Part shown: positions 14,509 to 63,670 of the stretch, piece by piece
How the letters are laid out: every line of letters begins with the position of its first letter
Numbering within the stretch: the stretch's first letter is position 1
Source of the DNA: Actinomycetes bacterium
Lineage (GTDB): Bacteria; Actinomycetota; Coriobacteriia; WRKU01; WQUG01
NCBI GenBank assembly: GCA_031272275.1
Contig: JAISUC010000021.1
Location: 7,490 to 71,489, forward strand
Reading direction: 5' to 3'
DNA length: 64,000 bases
Program-made: the position numbers and the translations under genes
Notes under the pieces: generated by a model
Told to the model about the DNA's origin: nothing
The model's input: the letters and a program-made list of their open reading frames with translations, nothing else
The model's database searches: none

Positions 14509-14573
14509 GGGCGCGACGGGACGCGCTCCCCCTATTTATCAGCCATCACCGCTTGAGCGAAAGGAACACGACG

Positions 14574-53351: not shown

Positions 53352-53414
53352 GGTCTTTGAATAGGAAAGCCGTGGGTCGGTTTTCGGCTTACTGCGTTTC
53401 ACGCTTGTTTCATG

Positions 53415-53450
53415 TCAGGGCATTCGGTACCACCGGATGCCCTGTTTTCT
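53415..53450 (+). terminator. Intrinsic terminator after secY (CAGGGCATTCGG-taccac-CGGATGCCCTG plus TTTTCTT)
   Basis: 11-bp stem with one bulge followed by a T-run; it ends the ribosomal cluster, and adk/map/infA do not follow. Confidence 0.6.
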
Positions 53451-53456
53451 TATAAT
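53451..53456 (+). promoter_or_regulatory. -10 TATAAT placed 6 nt before the eutBC ATG (leaderless)
   Basis: Same geometry as the ispD and cysS promoters; no SD. Confidence 0.45.
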
Positions 53457-53462
53457 AGCCGC

Positions 53463-55568
53463 ATGTACACAACCACCCTGCATGATCGCAGTTTCACCTT
53501 CGCGACGCTGAAAGCGCTCCTTGCCTGTGCCAGCGAGGAAAAAACCGGTGATGTGATGGCGGGTATCGCCGCCACCACCGAGCTGGAACGAATCGCCGCG
53601 CGCCGTATTCTGGCGGACTTACCCCTCAGCACGCTCTATGAAAACCCCGTCATTGCCTATGACACCGACGAAGTCACCCGCGTGATGATTGATGCGATTG
53701 ATGCGACCGCCTACGGCCGCATCAAAGACCTGACCGTGGGGGCATTCCGCGAACTGATTCTGGCGTCATCCCCGTCCTACCTGGCAAGCATCCGTGACGG
53801 CATCACGGCAGAGATGGCAAGTGCCACCGCGAAACTGATGAGCAACCTGGACCTGGTCTACGCCGCAGCCAAGCTCCCCGTAACGGCGACCTGCAACACG
53901 ACCATCGGGCTGCCCGGCACTTTCAGCGTGCGCTGCCAGCCGAACCACCCGACCGATGACGTCGCAGGAATCCTGGCTTCCACTGCCGAGGGACTCAGCT
54001 ACGGATGCGGGGATGCGGTTATCGGCGTGAACCCCGCCACCGACGACCCCGACAGCGTACGTGAAATCCTAACGGCGCTCCGCCGCCTGGTCGACGAATA
54101 CGCCATCCCGACCCAGAACTGCGTACTCGCGCACGTCAGCACCCAGATGGCAGCCCTTGCCTCTGGAGCCCCGGTTGACCTGATGTTCCAGTCGATTGCC
54201 GGCAGCCAACGTGCCAACGCAGCCTTTGGCATCGATGTGGCACTACTGGACGAAGCCGACCACATGATGCGACAGCTGAAAAACAGCACCGGCCCCAACT
54301 ATTTCTACTTTGAAACCGGCCAGGGCAGCGCGCTTTCTGCCGACGGGCACCACGGCGCCGACCAGCAAACGCTCGAGGCCCGCGCCTACAGCTTGGCAAA
54401 ACGCTACCGCCCCTTCCTGGTGAACACGGTGGTGGGCTTCATCGGCCCGGAATATCTGTATGACGGCCGCCAAATCATCCGCGCCGGCCTGGAAGACCAC
54501 TTCATGGGCAAACTGCTGGGCGTCCCCGCAGGCGTGGACGTCTGCTACACCAACCACGCCCGCGCCGACCAAAACGACGTAGACGTGCTGGTCGCGCTGC
54601 TTGCCCAGGCGGGTTGCAACTACATCATGGGCATCCCCACAACCGATGACGTGATGCTGGCATACCAAAGCTCCAGTTTCCACGACACGGCGACCATGCG
54701 CGAGCTCTTGGGTAAACATGCCATCCGGCCCTTCGAGCACCGCATGGAACAGCTCGGCGTTCTGTCGGACGGCCGGCTGACCACGCGCGCCGGCAACCCG
54801 CGCCTATTCGGCTACGACCCGCCGACCACGCACACAGCGAACACAGCGCAAGCCACACAATCGGCGGGGGAGCACGTCCCGACGCCCGCCCGTTTGGATG
54901 TCGGTCACGCCGGCCCGCGCCTGCGCACAGCGACACTTTTGGACCTGCGAGCCGACCACGCAATTGCACGCGATGCCGTTTGGGACGATACCGACTGCAG
55001 CGTGGCGGATGACCTGGGCTTTGTCACCGTGCAGACGCTGGTGAACGATAAAGAGGAATACCTGCGCCGCCCCGATTTGGCGCGTGGTTTCAGTGACGAA
55101 TCGCTGGCCTACCTGCGCCGCCACGCAGCCCCGGGTGCAGACCTGCAGATTATCGCAGCTGACGGATTGTCGGTCGCGGCCGTTCAGGAAAACCTGGCGC
55201 GGATCTATCCGGAACTGATCCGACTGGCGGGTGCTCGCGGCTACAGCACGGGCACACCCATCTATGTGCGTTATGGGCGTGTGGCGACGATGGACAAGAT
55301 TTCAGAAGCCCTGCAGGCAAAGGTCACCGTCCTGTTGGTGGGGGAACGCCCCGGCCTGGGTTGCCGCACCTCGATGAGTTGCTACATGGCTTGGGAGGCA
55401 AGCCCGGACAAGCCCGAGGCACAACGCAACGTAGTCTCGAACATCCACGACGGCGGTCTGCCACCCGAAGCTGCCGCCGAACGCATCATCTCGATTGCCG
55501 CCGATATGTTTCGGTACCGCACATCGGGCGTCGAACTGAACCGACTGCTCCATCGCGTCGCCCGCTGA
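53463..55568 (+). CDS. eutBC: Ethanolamine ammonia-lyase, large and small subunits fused (EutB-EutC)
   Basis: N-terminal about 455 aa is EutB-like and the C-terminal about 220 aa is EutC-like (LVGERPGLG..), joined by a Thr/Ala-rich linker; the ORF-track start at 53412 was rejected in favour of MYTTTLHDRSFTF. Confidence 0.8.
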   Translation: MYTTTLHDRSFTFATLKALLACASEEKTGDVMAGIAATTELERIAARRILADLPLSTLYENPVIAYDTDEVTRVMIDAIDATAYGRIKDLTVGAFRELILASSPSYLASIRDGITAEMASATAKLMSNLDLVYAAAKLPVTATCNTTIGLPGTFSVRCQPNHPTDDVAGILASTAEGLSYGCGDAVIGVNPATDDPDSVREILTALRRLVDEYAIPTQNCVLAHVSTQMAALASGAPVDLMFQSIAGSQRANAAFGIDVALLDEADHMMRQLKNSTGPNYFYFETGQGSALSADGHHGADQQTLEARAYSLAKRYRPFLVNTVVGFIGPEYLYDGRQIIRAGLEDHFMGKLLGVPAGVDVCYTNHARADQNDVDVLVALLAQAGCNYIMGIPTTDDVMLAYQSSSFHDTATMRELLGKHAIRPFEHRMEQLGVLSDGRLTTRAGNPRLFGYDPPTTHTANTAQATQSAGEHVPTPARLDVGHAGPRLRTATLLDLRADHAIARDAVWDDTDCSVADDLGFVTVQTLVNDKEEYLRRPDLARGFSDESLAYLRRHAAPGADLQIIAADGLSVAAVQENLARIYPELIRLAGARGYSTGTPIYVRYGRVATMDKISEALQAKVTVLLVGERPGLGCRTSMSCYMAWEASPDKPEAQRNVVSNIHDGGLPPEAAAERIISIAADMFRYRTSGVELNRLLHRVAR

Positions 55569-59998: not shown

Positions 59999-60658
59999 TC
60001 ACTCTTCTGTATCCTCACTAAAGTCAAGAGCGAGTTGCTCTCCTGCTTTCAGGTGTTCCTCTTCTGCTTTCAGGAGTTTCTCGAACCGTTTTTGCACGAT
60101 TTCTTCCAATGATTTCACGAGTTCTTGCAAATCTTCAATATCTTTCAGTTCGCGTAGCGAAAAAAGGGTGTCACCAAATTCATCTCGATATCGACGATAC
60201 AGAACAACGGGTTTGTTGTTCAGCAGTAGCTGGATTGCATTTCTCAGACTTCCCGAGCTTACCGATAGCTGTCCGTAACGTGGGTGCATATACGTATCCT
60301 GCCACACAATCAAACCATATTTGCACGCGTCACCCATTGCCCGGTCTTTTTCTGTTTCCCGTTCTTTTTGCTTACGTGGTTTACCGTCTTCACTAGATTT
60401 TTCTTCGGCCTTTGGTGAAACCTGAACTATGTCCCAGTCCTCCGGCACCTTTATCCGGGGCGTATCGTGAATGGTGTATACCGTGACGTTGGTATACTTA
60501 CGTTTTCTGAGATCTTCAGCGATACGAGCATCAACCCCCCTCTCAGAGTCACCGATCAACACGGGGATATCTTGGTCGACAATGTTGGCAATTCGTTCCT
60601 CTAACTCCTCGGGCAGAGAATCAATCTGTCGTGATCCGCTAATGAACACAGAACCCAT
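59999..60658 (-). CDS. SLOG/DprA-like Rossmann-fold protein (N-terminal FISGSR...VLIGDSERGVD) with an acidic coiled-coil C-terminus
   Basis: 219 aa; low-GC island gene; the pattern resembles DprA/YpsA/LOG-type nucleotide-binding modules; the family assignment is tentative. Confidence 0.5.
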   Translation of the reverse strand: MGSVFISGSRQIDSLPEELEERIANIVDQDIPVLIGDSERGVDARIAEDLRKRKYTNVTVYTIHDTPRIKVPEDWDIVQVSPKAEEKSSEDGKPRKQKERETEKDRAMGDACKYGLIVWQDTYMHPRYGQLSVSSGSLRNAIQLLLNNKPVVLYRRYRDEFGDTLFSLRELKDIEDLQELVKSLEEIVQKRFEKLLKAEEEHLKAGEQLALDFSEDTEE

Positions 60659-60718
60659 TAAATACTCCTTAAATTCTTCAGTTAATCTGTCGAGACTCCA
60701 TTGTACCCGCCCCGTCCC

Positions 60719-61468
60719 TTAAAAGGGAATGTCTTCGGTCAGGACCTCGACGCTCGGGCCGTTTTGTCGAGACTCAGCTGTACCCACCCCGTCCTTTTTT
60801 ATACCACCACCGGTGTTTTTGCAGAGTGACAGGAAGTATATGTGACCGGCTCCGTTCTTCTGCAGTTCCTTAATACAGGCCCGTAAGGTGGCACCTTCCT
60901 CATACGTGTCATCAACAATCAAGGTGGGAAGGCCATTCAAAGTATAAGTGCACGAGAAATCACCTTCAGAAAAATTAGATCCCCTCTCTTTTCTTTTCGA
61001 CTCCACACACGTCTTCTTCAGTAAGGCTTCAACGTATCGGTATTCAGGTGTTGCGAGTCCTTGTGCGATTGCATAGACGTGCTGAATATCTCGGTCTTTC
61101 GAGGACGGAGCCGGCACGATCAAAAGAGACCCGAGGTCTTCTGCCGCAACCAGGTTTTTGATTACACCGGATTTCTTTATTCTACTTACCGCATCACTGA
61201 TGAGTTCCAGCTTTTCCTTCCTACCAAGATTCTTCCAATACTTTAAGTGATTGATAGTCTCCCCGAAATCAGAGCGATTGGCAGCGTCCTTATGATACGG
61301 TTGGATTGCCAAGCCCTTGGTAAGACCGTCTGCAGTGATGGGAAGAAAAAGCCTACTGCCACAACCACCGAACCAGTCTTTGCAATAGTACTCACCTTCA
61401 TGGAGTTTACTCTTCATAATATCGGTGTTGCCACAAAACGGGCATCGCTCTATTCCTAGGAATTCCAT
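60719..61468 (-). CDS. ComF-like phosphoribosyltransferase-domain protein with N-terminal C4 zinc ribbon
   Basis: CPFCGN..C..GGCG zinc ribbon; PRTase type I motif LIVDDTYEEGATLRACIKEL; strong RBS GAGGAGGTG. Confidence 0.75.
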   Translation of the reverse strand: MEFLGIERCPFCGNTDIMKSKLHEGEYYCKDWFGGCGSRLFLPITADGLTKGLAIQPYHKDAANRSDFGETINHLKYWKNLGRKEKLELISDAVSRIKKSGVIKNLVAAEDLGSLLIVPAPSSKDRDIQHVYAIAQGLATPEYRYVEALLKKTCVESKRKERGSNFSEGDFSCTYTLNGLPTLIVDDTYEEGATLRACIKELQKNGAGHIYFLSLCKNTGGGIKKDGVGTAESRQNGPSVEVLTEDIPF

Positions 61469-61569
61469 TTCTTCACCTCCTCACAAAACGGGCATCGCTT
61501 TTTCTCGATTACCTTGACCCTGCCTTGTTTCTGCATCTCTTTAAATAAATCCAACATACTCTTAGCCAT
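61456..61569 (-). CDS. 37-aa ORF (MAKSMLDLFKEMQKQGRVKVIEKKRCPFCEEVKKWNS) that duplicates the PRTase N-terminal half zinc ribbon and overlaps the PRTase start
   Basis: RBS GAGGTGG 7 nt upstream; an 18-nt direct repeat cacaaaacgggcatcgct sits at 61432-61449 and 61482-61499; not in the supplied ORF track (under 60 aa). Confidence 0.3.
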   Translation of the reverse strand: MAKSMLDLFKEMQKQGRVKVIEKKRCPFCEEVKKWNS

Positions 61570-61581
61570 CTTTTCCACCTC

Positions 61582-62904
61582 TCACTGCAGACCGCGTTTT
61601 ATGATCTTCATATGACGCTTTGTTCCCTTGAATAGTGACGGGCTTCGTTCGAATGTTCGATGGGATCGCTTTACGTAGTTCAGGAAATTCGGCTGCTTTC
61701 GATCCCCCTTCTCCGAATAGATCTGATAGAGCATCCTTCTTGATTTTGCCCCTTTATGTGGGTCTTGTGCCGCAATGGCGTTTACCGTATTGATCTTTCG
61801 GCGTAGGCGATAGTGGTATTTTGAAATGGTCTTATCGCGAATGCGGACTTCCGTGCCGTCAATAGCGAAACCCAGATATTCCAACACATCTTTCGTGTTC
61901 GGTGTATCCGGCAGATAGTCCTCGTTGCAGTTGTGGATTGCACTGTGCACACGGTGATAAACACGGGTTTTGTCCGGCTGCAGGTCGAGCCCGGGGATTG
62001 AATCAATAATGCCGACCAGCCTTTTGTAGATACAATCAAAACCGACTCCGTCCGTTTCGTCGGAAGGGATGATGACGATGAAGTCATCACAATAGCGCAT
62101 GTATTTACCGGAGTATTCCGTCACCAAATCATGTATCAACTTGTCGAATTCCAGCATATAGACGTTTGATAAAACCCCACTGATGGGGGAGCCTTGCGGT
62201 ATCCCATAGTCGTTGTCATTACGTGCGATAGCACCACTGCGCGATTCGCGTTTACTCAACTGCCTGTATTGCTCAGGGGTCAACACACGCTTTTTTCGGT
62301 CGAGCTCTCTGCGCGTCTTAACCCCATTGATTTCCAGCAAGGACTTCAGGCTCCAATCAGAATAGCGCGTGATGTTCTTGTAGACCGCATAATAATCAGC
62401 AGGGAGCTTTGGGGCACCAAACAATGAAAGAAGTCGTTCTTTCAAGTACCGATGATCCAAGTGGTCAAAGAAGCCCGTAAAATCCCCAATCAACACAAAA
62501 CACTCCGGATGCTCGGCAATACAATCAAAGGCCGCTTTCGCGAAGTCTATGTTGCATTTTTTCAGGTCTGACCGATATGCAATGGCACAATCAGCGGTGC
62601 CGTCAACAGCAATGCGCCGAACGTACTTTTCCTCCAACAGCAGCGAATAGTATTGATAGATGCAGCGATCGATGTGCGCGGCATAGCGAATGGGGCGTTC
62701 TTTTGCCTTGGTACCGGTTCCCTTGTGGTATTTCCGCGTATGCTCGACGTAGTGAATAAAAGGATAGAATCCGTGTCGCGCAACTTTTTCGGGATCCGTG
62801 ATGTAATCCCATTTGCTGTCGCAGCTTACGCGCAGATCAAAGTGCGCGTAGCCTTTTGGCTTGCTGTGTTTATTTCGCCACTCGTGCAGCTGTTCGGGGG
62901 TCAT
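61582..62904 (-). CDS. Reverse transcriptase (retron/defence-associated RT-like, canonical motifs 1-7)
   Basis: RPIRYAAHIDRCIYQYY (motifs 1/2), DFTGFFDHLDH (motif A, D..FF), GIPQGSPISGVLSNVYM (B'), YCDDFIVI (YxDD), LGFAIDG (motif 7); 440 aa with a basic C-terminal tail. Confidence 0.85.
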   Translation of the reverse strand: MTPEQLHEWRNKHSKPKGYAHFDLRVSCDSKWDYITDPEKVARHGFYPFIHYVEHTRKYHKGTGTKAKERPIRYAAHIDRCIYQYYSLLLEEKYVRRIAVDGTADCAIAYRSDLKKCNIDFAKAAFDCIAEHPECFVLIGDFTGFFDHLDHRYLKERLLSLFGAPKLPADYYAVYKNITRYSDWSLKSLLEINGVKTRRELDRKKRVLTPEQYRQLSKRESRSGAIARNDNDYGIPQGSPISGVLSNVYMLEFDKLIHDLVTEYSGKYMRYCDDFIVIIPSDETDGVGFDCIYKRLVGIIDSIPGLDLQPDKTRVYHRVHSAIHNCNEDYLPDTPNTKDVLEYLGFAIDGTEVRIRDKTISKYHYRLRRKINTVNAIAAQDPHKGAKSRRMLYQIYSEKGDRKQPNFLNYVKRSHRTFERSPSLFKGTKRHMKIIKRGLQ

Positions 62905-63167
62905 ATTGTTGTCCCCGAATGCACAAAAGCCACCGGCACGGGGTACGACATCCCTAATCCGGTGGCCCTAAAACGATAATACCTGATGTCATTGACATCG
63001 TCGGCCGTACTCAATTGCACACAAAGTGCGATCATGTAGTTCAATACTTCCCTTATCCCTGCGGATAAGGCGTCCCCATTGTAGATGATTTGCGTTGGGC
63101 TGTCAACGCTCGTTTCGAAGCCGACCAATTGCCTCTCCTGCTCTTCCAGCGGAATAATACTTCCCAT
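62901..63167 (-). CDS. 88-aa hypothetical ORF translationally coupled to the RT (ATGA overlap); alternatively a non-coding RNA region
   Basis: Its stop overlaps the RT start codon; the region holds several stable hairpins (62930-62965, 62985-62999, 63051-63070), so a structured ncRNA is equally possible. Confidence 0.35.
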   Translation of the reverse strand: MGSIIPLEEQERQLVGFETSVDSPTQIIYNGDALSAGIREVLNYMIALCVQLSTADDVNDIRYYRFRATGLGMSYPVPVAFVHSGTTI

Positions 63168-63336
63168 CGTAGAGGCCGTTCTCTTTCAGGATGCGAATCT
63201 GATTTGAGGTCGCATGATGATTCCACATTTCAGAGTTATGATACTGGCTACGATAGCCATGCTGCGCACTTCTATAGATAGCCTTACGGTTATGATAGCC
63301 ATCGCTATAATCGGAATATGAGTTGCGCCTTGCCAT
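63103..63336 (-). CDS. 77-aa Tyr/His/Ser-rich small protein, first gene of the island operon
   Basis: Strong RBS GAGGAAGGG 8 nt upstream of ATG; unusual composition (12 Y, 7 H). Confidence 0.4.
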   Translation of the reverse strand: MARRNSYSDYSDGYHNRKAIYRSAQHGYRSQYHNSEMWNHHATSNQIRILKENGLYDGKYYSAGRAGEAIGRLRNER

Positions 63337-63403
63337 TTGGCATACCCCTTCCTCAACTACTGTTTCCGGTAATCCACCTCAAACCCGAAAATGTGCCAGC
63401 GCA

Positions 63404-63431
63404 AAAATAGCACAGGGGGGGGGGCTGTCAA
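63404..63431 (-). promoter_or_regulatory. Promoter of the island operon: TTGACA - G/C10 homopolymer in the 16-nt spacer - TATTTT
   Basis: Minus-strand TTGACAG-C10-TGTGC-TATTTT; the 10-nt homopolymer tract is at 63415-63424. Confidence 0.45.
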
Positions 63432-63670
63432 GGAGGCTTTTTTCAGTTGCAGATGGGGTACCGATTACGATGAAATCCGCAGTTCAAGCTGCCTCCGCAC
63501 GCCGTCCACCAAACAGAGCCACACTAAAGCGGGGGAGTACGTCCCGGCGTCTGCGTTGGGCTGCGCGCCTGCTGCCGGATGGGCGCTGCTGCGGGACGCA
63601 CTCCCCCCCCTGAAAACGTGGGATTCCGTGTTCAGTTAACTGCAAAATACGTGAAAGTAACTGTCAATAG

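Follow-up and report, generated by a model that had tools for sequence, protein, structure and literature searches.

Organization of the locus

The window, by which we mean the whole 64-kb stretch of DNA that was analyzed, includes a low-GC stretch extending from position 59999 to position 63400 (GC content of 0.45 to 0.51, versus 0.60 to 0.69 to its left and ~0.54 to its right). Five genes located on the minus strand of this island encode proteins of 77, 440, 37, 249, and 219 residues (Table 1). The 440-residue protein was identified as a reverse transcriptase (RT) of the Drt2 family both by PADLOC (Drt2, 8.2e-142) and by NCBIfam (Drt2 equivalog, 400.9 bits for a cut-off of 390), indicating that the island encodes a DRT2 (UG2) enzyme. 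The proposal of the earlier note that the island houses an RT-based defense module was thus borne out.

The 249-residue protein gave weak matches to ShosT (3.4e-7), PsyrT (4.7e-6), and ComF (1.2e-5, below the cut-off of that family). No match to the 219-residue protein was found in PADLOC, Pfam, NCBIfam, or the PDB sequences, ShosA included, and its structure model was too poor for a fold search. As to ShosTA-like features, the pair therefore combines a protein that weakly matches ShosT with a partner devoid of any ShosA match. The two genes (59999 to 61468, minus strand) follow the RT gene with no room for a terminator, and this association is atypical in comparison to the DRT2 loci previously described (PMC11100668, PMC12039810). 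The bridging 37-residue ORF repeats the CPFC half zinc ribbon present at the N terminus of the phosphoribosyltransferase-like (PRTase) protein, and an 18-nt duplication (AGCGATGCCCGTTTTGTG; 61433 to 61497, minus strand) occurs in the region of the RT/PRTase junction.

The hairpin formed by the inverted pair of GGGACGYRCTCCCCC stands between the upstream nucleoside hydrolase gene and the promoter designated P1 below. This motif is present at 14 sites across the window, versus 0.16 expected (e.g., at positions 14516, 23337, 39415, 63531, and 63591). Its reverse complement resembles a Shine-Dalgarno region, and several copies are located just before an ATG. Elsewhere in the window, a single plus-strand ORF of 718 codons (53412 to 55568) comprises EutB (residues 20 to 467) and EutC (residues 488 to 711), the ethanolamine ammonia-lyase subunits, which are apparently fused.

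Table 1. Positions of promoter elements, genes, and RNA features at the DRT2 locus
Feature	Position	Strand	Basis
Inverted pair of host interspersed 15-nt motif GGGACGYRCTCCCCC, long hairpin	63531..63607	.	Motif scan
A6 tract, upstream of P1 -35	63438..63443	-	Read from sequence
P1 -35 hexamer TTGACA (consensus)	63431-63426	-	Sequence and promoter scan
P1 spacer, 16 nt, G C10 TGTGC	63425-63410	-	Sequence
C10 homopolymer, 10/16 of the P1 spacer bases	63415..63424	-	Sequence; same length in Logan contig L001
P1 TGTGC TATTTT (TG extended -10 plus -10 hexamer)	63404..63414	-	Promoter scan, sequence
P1 -10 hexamer TATTTT	63409-63404	-	Sequence and promoter scan
Ribosome-binding site GAGGAAGGGG, 8 nt before the ATG (63336) of the 77-residue protein gene	63345..63354	-	Sequence
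Gene for 77-residue protein, unnamed conserved family	63103..63336	-	23 family matches, invariant residues
P2, TTGACA-17-TACAAT, 11/12	63078..63106	-	Promoter scan; register as in homologues
SL1-like hairpin GCCTTATCC-GCA-GGGATAAGG, 6 nt after P2 -10	63051..63071	-	Covariance model
Conserved 3' hairpin of DRT2 ncRNA scaffold	62926..62981	-	Covariance model, nhmmer
DRT2 (UG2) reverse transcriptase, 440 residues, YCDD intact	61582..62904	-	PADLOC, NCBIfam, Pfam RVT_1
37-residue ORF bridging the RT and PRTase genes	61456..61569	-	Sequence
249-residue zinc-ribbon plus phosphoribosyltransferase-like protein	60719..61468	-	Weak family matches
219-residue protein, last gene of the low-GC island	59999..60658	-	No family match

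A C10 tract in the spacer of promoter P1

The minus strand of the region upstream from the 77-residue protein gene reads AAAAAAGCCTCC TTGACA G CCCCCCCCCC TGTGC TATTTT. The C10 run (G10 on the plus strand) thus lies between recognizable -35 and -10 hexamers, as expected for a promoter containing a mononucleotide run of at least ~8 nt in its spacer. The letters and coordinates reported in the earlier note for a G10/C10 run within the 16-nt spacer of a TTGACA/TATTTT promoter were correct. Its comparison to Neisseria was supported with respect to architecture, a homopolymer filling the spacer of a sigma-70-type promoter, as found for porA, opc, and fetA (PMC2791445). The promoter scan also flagged a canonical extended -10 motif (TG at 63412-63411), and the A6 tract occupies the position of a proximal UP element, a function that we consider putative. 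Based on the spacing, transcription is predicted to start near position 63397. P1 looks like a good, strong sigma-70-type promoter and is predicted to be active. Its score (10/12 plus TG) and that of the second promoter of the locus, P2 (11/12), were well above the scan threshold, at which promoter-like sites were no commoner in the observed sequence than in shuffled sequences (4 versus 4.3). A second pair of hexamers similar to those of P1 (TTGACAG ... TATTTTGC; 63644 to 63667, minus strand) was detected 236 nt upstream of P1, with a spacer of just 12 nt.

Runs of G or C with lengths of 5, 6, 7, 8, 9, and 10 nt were present 89, 14, 2, 1, 0, and 1 times, respectively, in the 64-kb window. The P1 tract is the single run of at least 9 nt. 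The two runs of at least 8 nt are both located in the intergenic region of P1, the other one (63603 to 63610) being in the GGGACGYRCTCCCCC hairpin. An origin of the G run as a remnant of a GGGACGYRCTCCCCC arm was considered and rejected, since an extension to C8 was found in the adjacent copy alone, the others ending with C5.

A conserved 77-residue protein encoded downstream of P1

P1 stands 60 nt upstream of the 77-residue protein gene. A phmmer search of 1.84e9 representative proteins returned 23 matches to this protein at E<=1e-3. All of them covered residues ~31 to 72, which correspond to a conserved domain of ~40 residues (NSRMWsqPATxxQIaaLKaxGnyDGKYYSkGRAGqtIG, or NSRMW-PAT-QI-DGKYYSKGRAGQ-IG in short form). 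Twelve residues (W38, T43, Q46, L50, D57, G58, S62, G64, R65, A66, I70, and G71) were invariant across 17 sequences, including that of the window. Stand-alone homologues (60 to 87 residues; profile E values of 2.9e-17 to 5.8e-25) have an MAK or MAR start, like the 77-residue protein. The domain is found elsewhere at the N terminus of proteins of 390 to 517 residues that contain a C-terminal S1 domain. The 23 family matches sharing the same 40-residue domain, the MAK/MAR start, and the presence of a ribosome-binding site indicate that the ORF is a real gene belonging to a conserved family.

The genes located beside the stand-alone homologues (loci L037 to L043) include those encoding NYN, HEPN_Swt1-TPR, DUF4258-KH, and WYL/WCX proteins; these surroundings are RNA-related, defense-like, or mobile. 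The 77-residue protein had no match in Pfam, NCBIfam, PADLOC, or the plasmid and phage collections, and a scan of viral contigs for the family revealed no relatives. The AF2 model comprised a disordered N terminus, rich in Y, S, and H, followed by a small three-helix domain (pLDDT of ~80), which did not give any significant match in a fold search. Gene callers miss the gene encoding this protein and annotate an 88-residue ORF (62901 to 63167, minus strand; 1684 to 1950 in contig L001). This ORF overlies P2 and the conserved hairpins of the noncoding RNA (ncRNA) and is probably a miscall.

P2, a promoter in the conserved DRT2 register

The stop codon of the 77-residue protein gene (63105-63103) is located inside the -35 hexamer of P2, the best promoter match of the region. 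In most of 13 aligned homologous DRT2 loci (RT identity of 44 to 48%), a sigma-70-type promoter is followed, after 6 to 7 nt, by a hairpin designated SL1 (GCCTTATGT...ACATAAGG). SL1 was supported by covariation in the homologue alignment, and the covariance model for the SL1 region had full-length matches in 23 of the 35 homologue loci. The hairpin following P2 in the window was the best minus-strand match of covariance model R1 (9.7 bits; a partial match, limited to model positions 8 to 29), and its stem, GCCTTAT/ATAAGGG, is that of the homologue consensus. Thus, P2 sits in the conserved position of a DRT2 promoter, the activity of both P1 and P2 being predicted.

These observations do not support the earlier note in its assignment of P1 to the RT island operon. 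The 77-residue protein gene comes first after P1, and the RT is preceded by P2, which is the stronger of the two promoters and occupies the register of DRT2 promoters relative to the first ncRNA hairpin. No terminator-like site was detected on the minus strand between positions 63336 and 62904. Since the interval between the 77-residue protein gene and P2 or the RT lacks a terminator-like site, transcription from P1 probably continues into the DRT2 locus. In the reading that we favor (see below), P1 would at most provide the RT with additional read-through transcription, and the RT module would not be switched by the tract, because P2 serves DRT2 in the conserved register before SL1.

An ncRNA without a recognizable template

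DRT2 systems function by copying a template, contained in an upstream ncRNA, into concatemeric cDNA, thereby reconstituting a promoter and an antisense ORF (neo); in Klebsiella pneumoniae DRT2 (KpnDRT2), the ncRNA and the RT gene share one promoter, which precedes the ncRNA (PMC11100668, PMC12039810). The ncRNA of the homologues comprises, from its 5' side, SL1, ATTGTTGTCAAC (antisense of TTGACA), a template of ~100 nt, and CAT, which is antisense to the neo start codon and is followed by CCTCC, an anti-Shine-Dalgarno (anti-SD) motif. Next come a hairpin with the loop TATTATAACATA (antisense of TATAAT), the scaffold, and the 3' hairpin. This order of elements fits the published permuted-promoter design (PMC12039810).

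The 3' hairpin was retrieved in the window by covariance model R2 (24.3 bits, E value of 1e-4; a partial match in which pairs are kept through two-sided changes) and by nhmmer (E value of 4.6e-6), and it displays covariation among homologues. The matches to the 5' and 3' hairpins, both partial, are 145 nt apart in the window versus 290 to 330 nt in the homologues. The ncRNA spans ~166 nt from the first hairpin to the RT start (62905 to 63071, minus strand) versus 276 to 354 nt in the homologues. The homologue motifs ATTGTTGTCAAC, CCTCC, and TATTATAACATA were absent from the ncRNA region of the window, in which no convincing stop-free antisense unit (neo) was detected. In 10 of 20 homologous DRT2 loci, the 5' part of the ncRNA, ~300 nt ahead of the RT gene, was matched by the Rfam RT-6 RNA (RF03027); the window yielded no match to this RNA, even with the threshold relaxed to E<=10. 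The window thus looks as though it encodes a DRT2 ncRNA without a template region together with an RT ORF that appears intact. The flank following the window hairpin, AAGTATTGAAC, is identical to the flank following the template hairpin in two homologous loci (L002 and L007), an arrangement suggestive of the loss of one template unit between the two ATTG jump sites.

A reading in which the 77- and 88-residue ORFs would both be spurious and the neo template would be antisense to them was also considered, based on a 40-codon antisense ORF (63085 to 63204) and on 7-nt repeats located 114 and 132 nt apart. The existence of real homologues of the 77-residue ORF led us to reject this reading. In addition, the region lacks the anti-SD, -10 hairpin, and -35 motif of the homologues, and 7-nt repeats are expected by chance.

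Length of the C10 tract

A run of 10 C residues is long enough for replication slippage. The C10 tract was found in one other contig encoding the RT (Logan SRR14710912, L001), which is not independent evidence on tract length because it is 100% identical to the window over 5,313 nt. Scanning metagenome contigs for the flanks of the tract separated by any run length from 4 to 20 gave 0 matches. An exact-protein look-up of the RT returned one identical contig. The RT-based search for loci in genome and metagenome contigs revealed only distant relatives, none with more than 49% identity, the RT being a singleton with a nearest relative that is 49% identical. Sister strains were sought with the flanking nucleoside hydrolase, for which the next best match was just 66% identical, and the plasmid and phage collections provided neither DNA nor protein matches. 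No close relative of the host was present in any collection searched. The NCBI label of the metagenome-assembled genome is "Actinomycetes bacterium," but both the nucleoside hydrolase and the RT have their best relatives in the Clostridia/Bacillota. Runs of G or C of at least 8 nt were present at the promoters of 0 of the 35 DRT2 homologue loci and 0 of the 7 loci of homologues of the small gene. The sole such run elsewhere in these 42 loci, detected in L009, falls within the ribosome-binding region that immediately precedes the RT gene.

A TG extended -10 renders a promoter less dependent on its -35 hexamer and on spacing. Since the -10 of P1 is extended in this manner, we would expect the gain or loss of one C to result in graded tuning of P1 rather than in on/off switching. 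Homopolymers located between the -35 and -10 hexamers are an established route to variable promoter strength (PMC2791445). A role of the tract as an expression tuner of the small accessory gene is plausible but unproven.

Interpretation of the locus

The reading that we favor, to which we assign as a whole a probability of about 0.5, is that P1 drives the 77-residue protein gene, that the C10 tract tunes P1, and that DRT2 runs from P2. The immediate role of P1, which combines an A tract, a consensus -35, a 16-nt spacer, and a TG extended -10, would be the transcription of the 77-residue protein gene as an accessory gene. Slippage by one C would generate spacers of 15 or 17 nt, thereby tuning the output of P1. 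Transcripts initiated at P1 would read on into the DRT2 locus, there being no intervening terminator, and DRT2 would be transcribed from the near-consensus P2 promoter, 6 nt before the first ncRNA hairpin. This scheme builds on the anatomy of the locus, the reality of the 77-residue protein gene, the assignment of the RT to Drt2, and the position of P2 in register with SL1, to which it adds promoter activities, read-through, and slippage as predicted steps. It is weakened by the similarity between P1 and the DRT2 promoter of locus L011, which share TTGACAGC and TGTGCTATT; P1 could be an ancestral DRT2 promoter. Because the ncRNA made from P2 would be ~166 nt in length and devoid of a template, the longer P1 transcript may matter for the function of the RT after all.

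The tract might also be incidental, being due to chance or a fixed by-product of the joining of the 77-residue protein gene cassette, or of the island, to the adjacent DNA, with no regulatory role, any slippage being neutral noise. An analytic estimate derived from the run-extension probabilities of the window predicts 0.03 to 0.07 runs of at least 10 nt per base type, i.e., ~0.1 in total per 64 kb and hence several per genome. Runs of 8 nt were not unusual (4 overlapping matches versus 2.8 expected). A 10-nt run is accordingly rare in the window without being impossible by chance, and a few are expected in a whole genome. No excess of long homopolymers was found across the 64-kb window, the distribution of run lengths decaying normally, unlike that of contingency-locus users; likewise, the many contingency-locus repeats that are typical of, although not strictly defining for, the porA/opc/fetA type were not found in the window. 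The two copies of a 10-nt direct repeat, TTGACAGCCC (63422-63431 and 63097-63106, minus strand; 325 nt apart), form the -35 regions of P1 and P2, with the 77-residue protein gene between them. The C run prolongs the GCCC end of this repeat, which is suggestive of a junction. An overlapping 12-nt repeat connects positions 63091-63102 to positions 63552-63563, in the loop of the host hairpin element, and both repeats are possibly traces of a cassette insertion. The absence of the tract from the promoters of the homologues of DRT2 and of the small gene is also consistent with an incidental origin. However, the run is located exactly inside the spacer of a promoter that displays three further consensus features and precedes a real gene, a further coincidence that we estimate at ~1 to 2%. 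Moreover, C10 is long enough for changes in length, and hence in spacing, to be expected. On balance, we regard an incidental tract as possible but rather doubtful.

The proposal that the entire RT island is transcribed as an operon from P1, with slippage of the C10 tract switching the defense module on and off, appears unlikely to us. The absence of a terminator between P1 and the RT, the tight packing of the genes from the RT onward, and the resemblance of P1 to the DRT2 promoters of loci L006 and L011 in the extended -10 (TGTGCTAT) are in favor of this proposal. However, P2 is a better promoter with a conserved register before SL1, and the extended -10 weakens the dependence of P1 on its spacer. 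In addition, no length variant was observed, the second assembly being identical and the pattern scan giving 0 matches, and promoter G/C runs of at least 8 nt are absent from all 35 DRT2 homologue loci.

In the strongest form of this proposal, a usable template would be present only on the long P1 transcript, and the competence of DRT2 would be gated by the tract, in keeping with the lack of a template, an RT-6 motif, and a permuted neo promoter in the P2-proximal ncRNA. An exact 10-nt direct repeat, GGGAAGTATT, is present on the minus strand at 63165-63156 and 63052-63043, 113 nt apart. Its copies could mark the jump sites bracketing a template reachable only from P1. One copy follows directly the ncRNA hairpin, but the other is accounted for by the codons of the 77-residue protein gene that specify the conserved DGKYY residues. 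Furthermore, the 113-nt unit between the copies contains stops in all three antisense frames, whereas neo is antisense in the characterized systems (PMC12039810). We consider very improbable the combined scheme in which P2 alone produces an ncRNA that has lost its template, a long P1 transcript running through the 77-residue protein gene supplies the sequence copied by the RT, and slippage of C10 stochastically gates the competence of a cell for RT-based gene synthesis. If true, such a mechanism would be a contingency switch for a DRT system in which a protein-coding gene also serves as a portion of the template RNA.

Finally, homopolymers are error prone and the source is a metagenome-assembled genome, but an artefactual run length is scarcely credible, since an unbroken C10 was present in two assemblies obtained with different pipelines (the source contig and Logan SRR14710912).

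Returning to P1 as the tuned promoter of the 77-residue protein gene, slippage of the tract with an effect on output would add an uncultured high-GC lineage, from the gut or the environment, to those with repeat-mediated contingency regulation. This regulation would operate beside an RT defense system and could hedge costly or toxic immunity across the population. As it stands, the analysis serves mainly as a correction: the promoter that contains the tract is that of a small conserved gene, and DRT2 is preceded by a promoter of its own. More unusual is the association, at this locus, of an intact-looking DRT2 RT with a template-less ncRNA.

Comparison with known systems

The closest parallels for P1 are the porA, opc, and fetA promoters of Neisseria meningitidis, in which a G/C homopolymer of ~10 nt also fills a sigma-70-type spacer and the gain or loss of one nucleotide likewise moves the spacing around the 17-nt optimum (PMC2791445). 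Tract length in these promoters has been shown to vary between and within strains and to set expression, whereas such effects are putative for P1. The Neisseria genes encode surface antigens in repeat-rich genomes; P1, in contrast, precedes the gene for a small cytoplasmic-looking protein and has a TG extended -10.

Stochastic switching of anti-phage defense by slippage of repeat tracts is an established idea (reviewed in PMC12707154). The tracts of phase-variable restriction-modification and BREX systems are usually located in coding sequences and frameshift the gene, whereas the P1 tract is located in a promoter, which is not that of DRT2. To our knowledge, no DRT-type system is known to be phase variable.

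The RT of the window belongs to the same family as that of Klebsiella pneumoniae DRT2 (Tang et al., PMC11100668; Wilkinson et al., PMC12039810). In KpnDRT2, the RT gene is immediately preceded by an ncRNA bearing a hairpin on its 5' side and a conserved one on its 3' side; the window has a putative counterpart, in which both hairpins were matched in part. At ~166 nt, this ncRNA is shorter than that of KpnDRT2 (281 nt), and neither a template nor a permuted TTGACA/TATAAT pair nor a neo reading frame is recognizable in it. The window also differs from KpnDRT2 by the presence of a second promoter and a protein-coding gene upstream and by a PRTase gene pair located after the RT.
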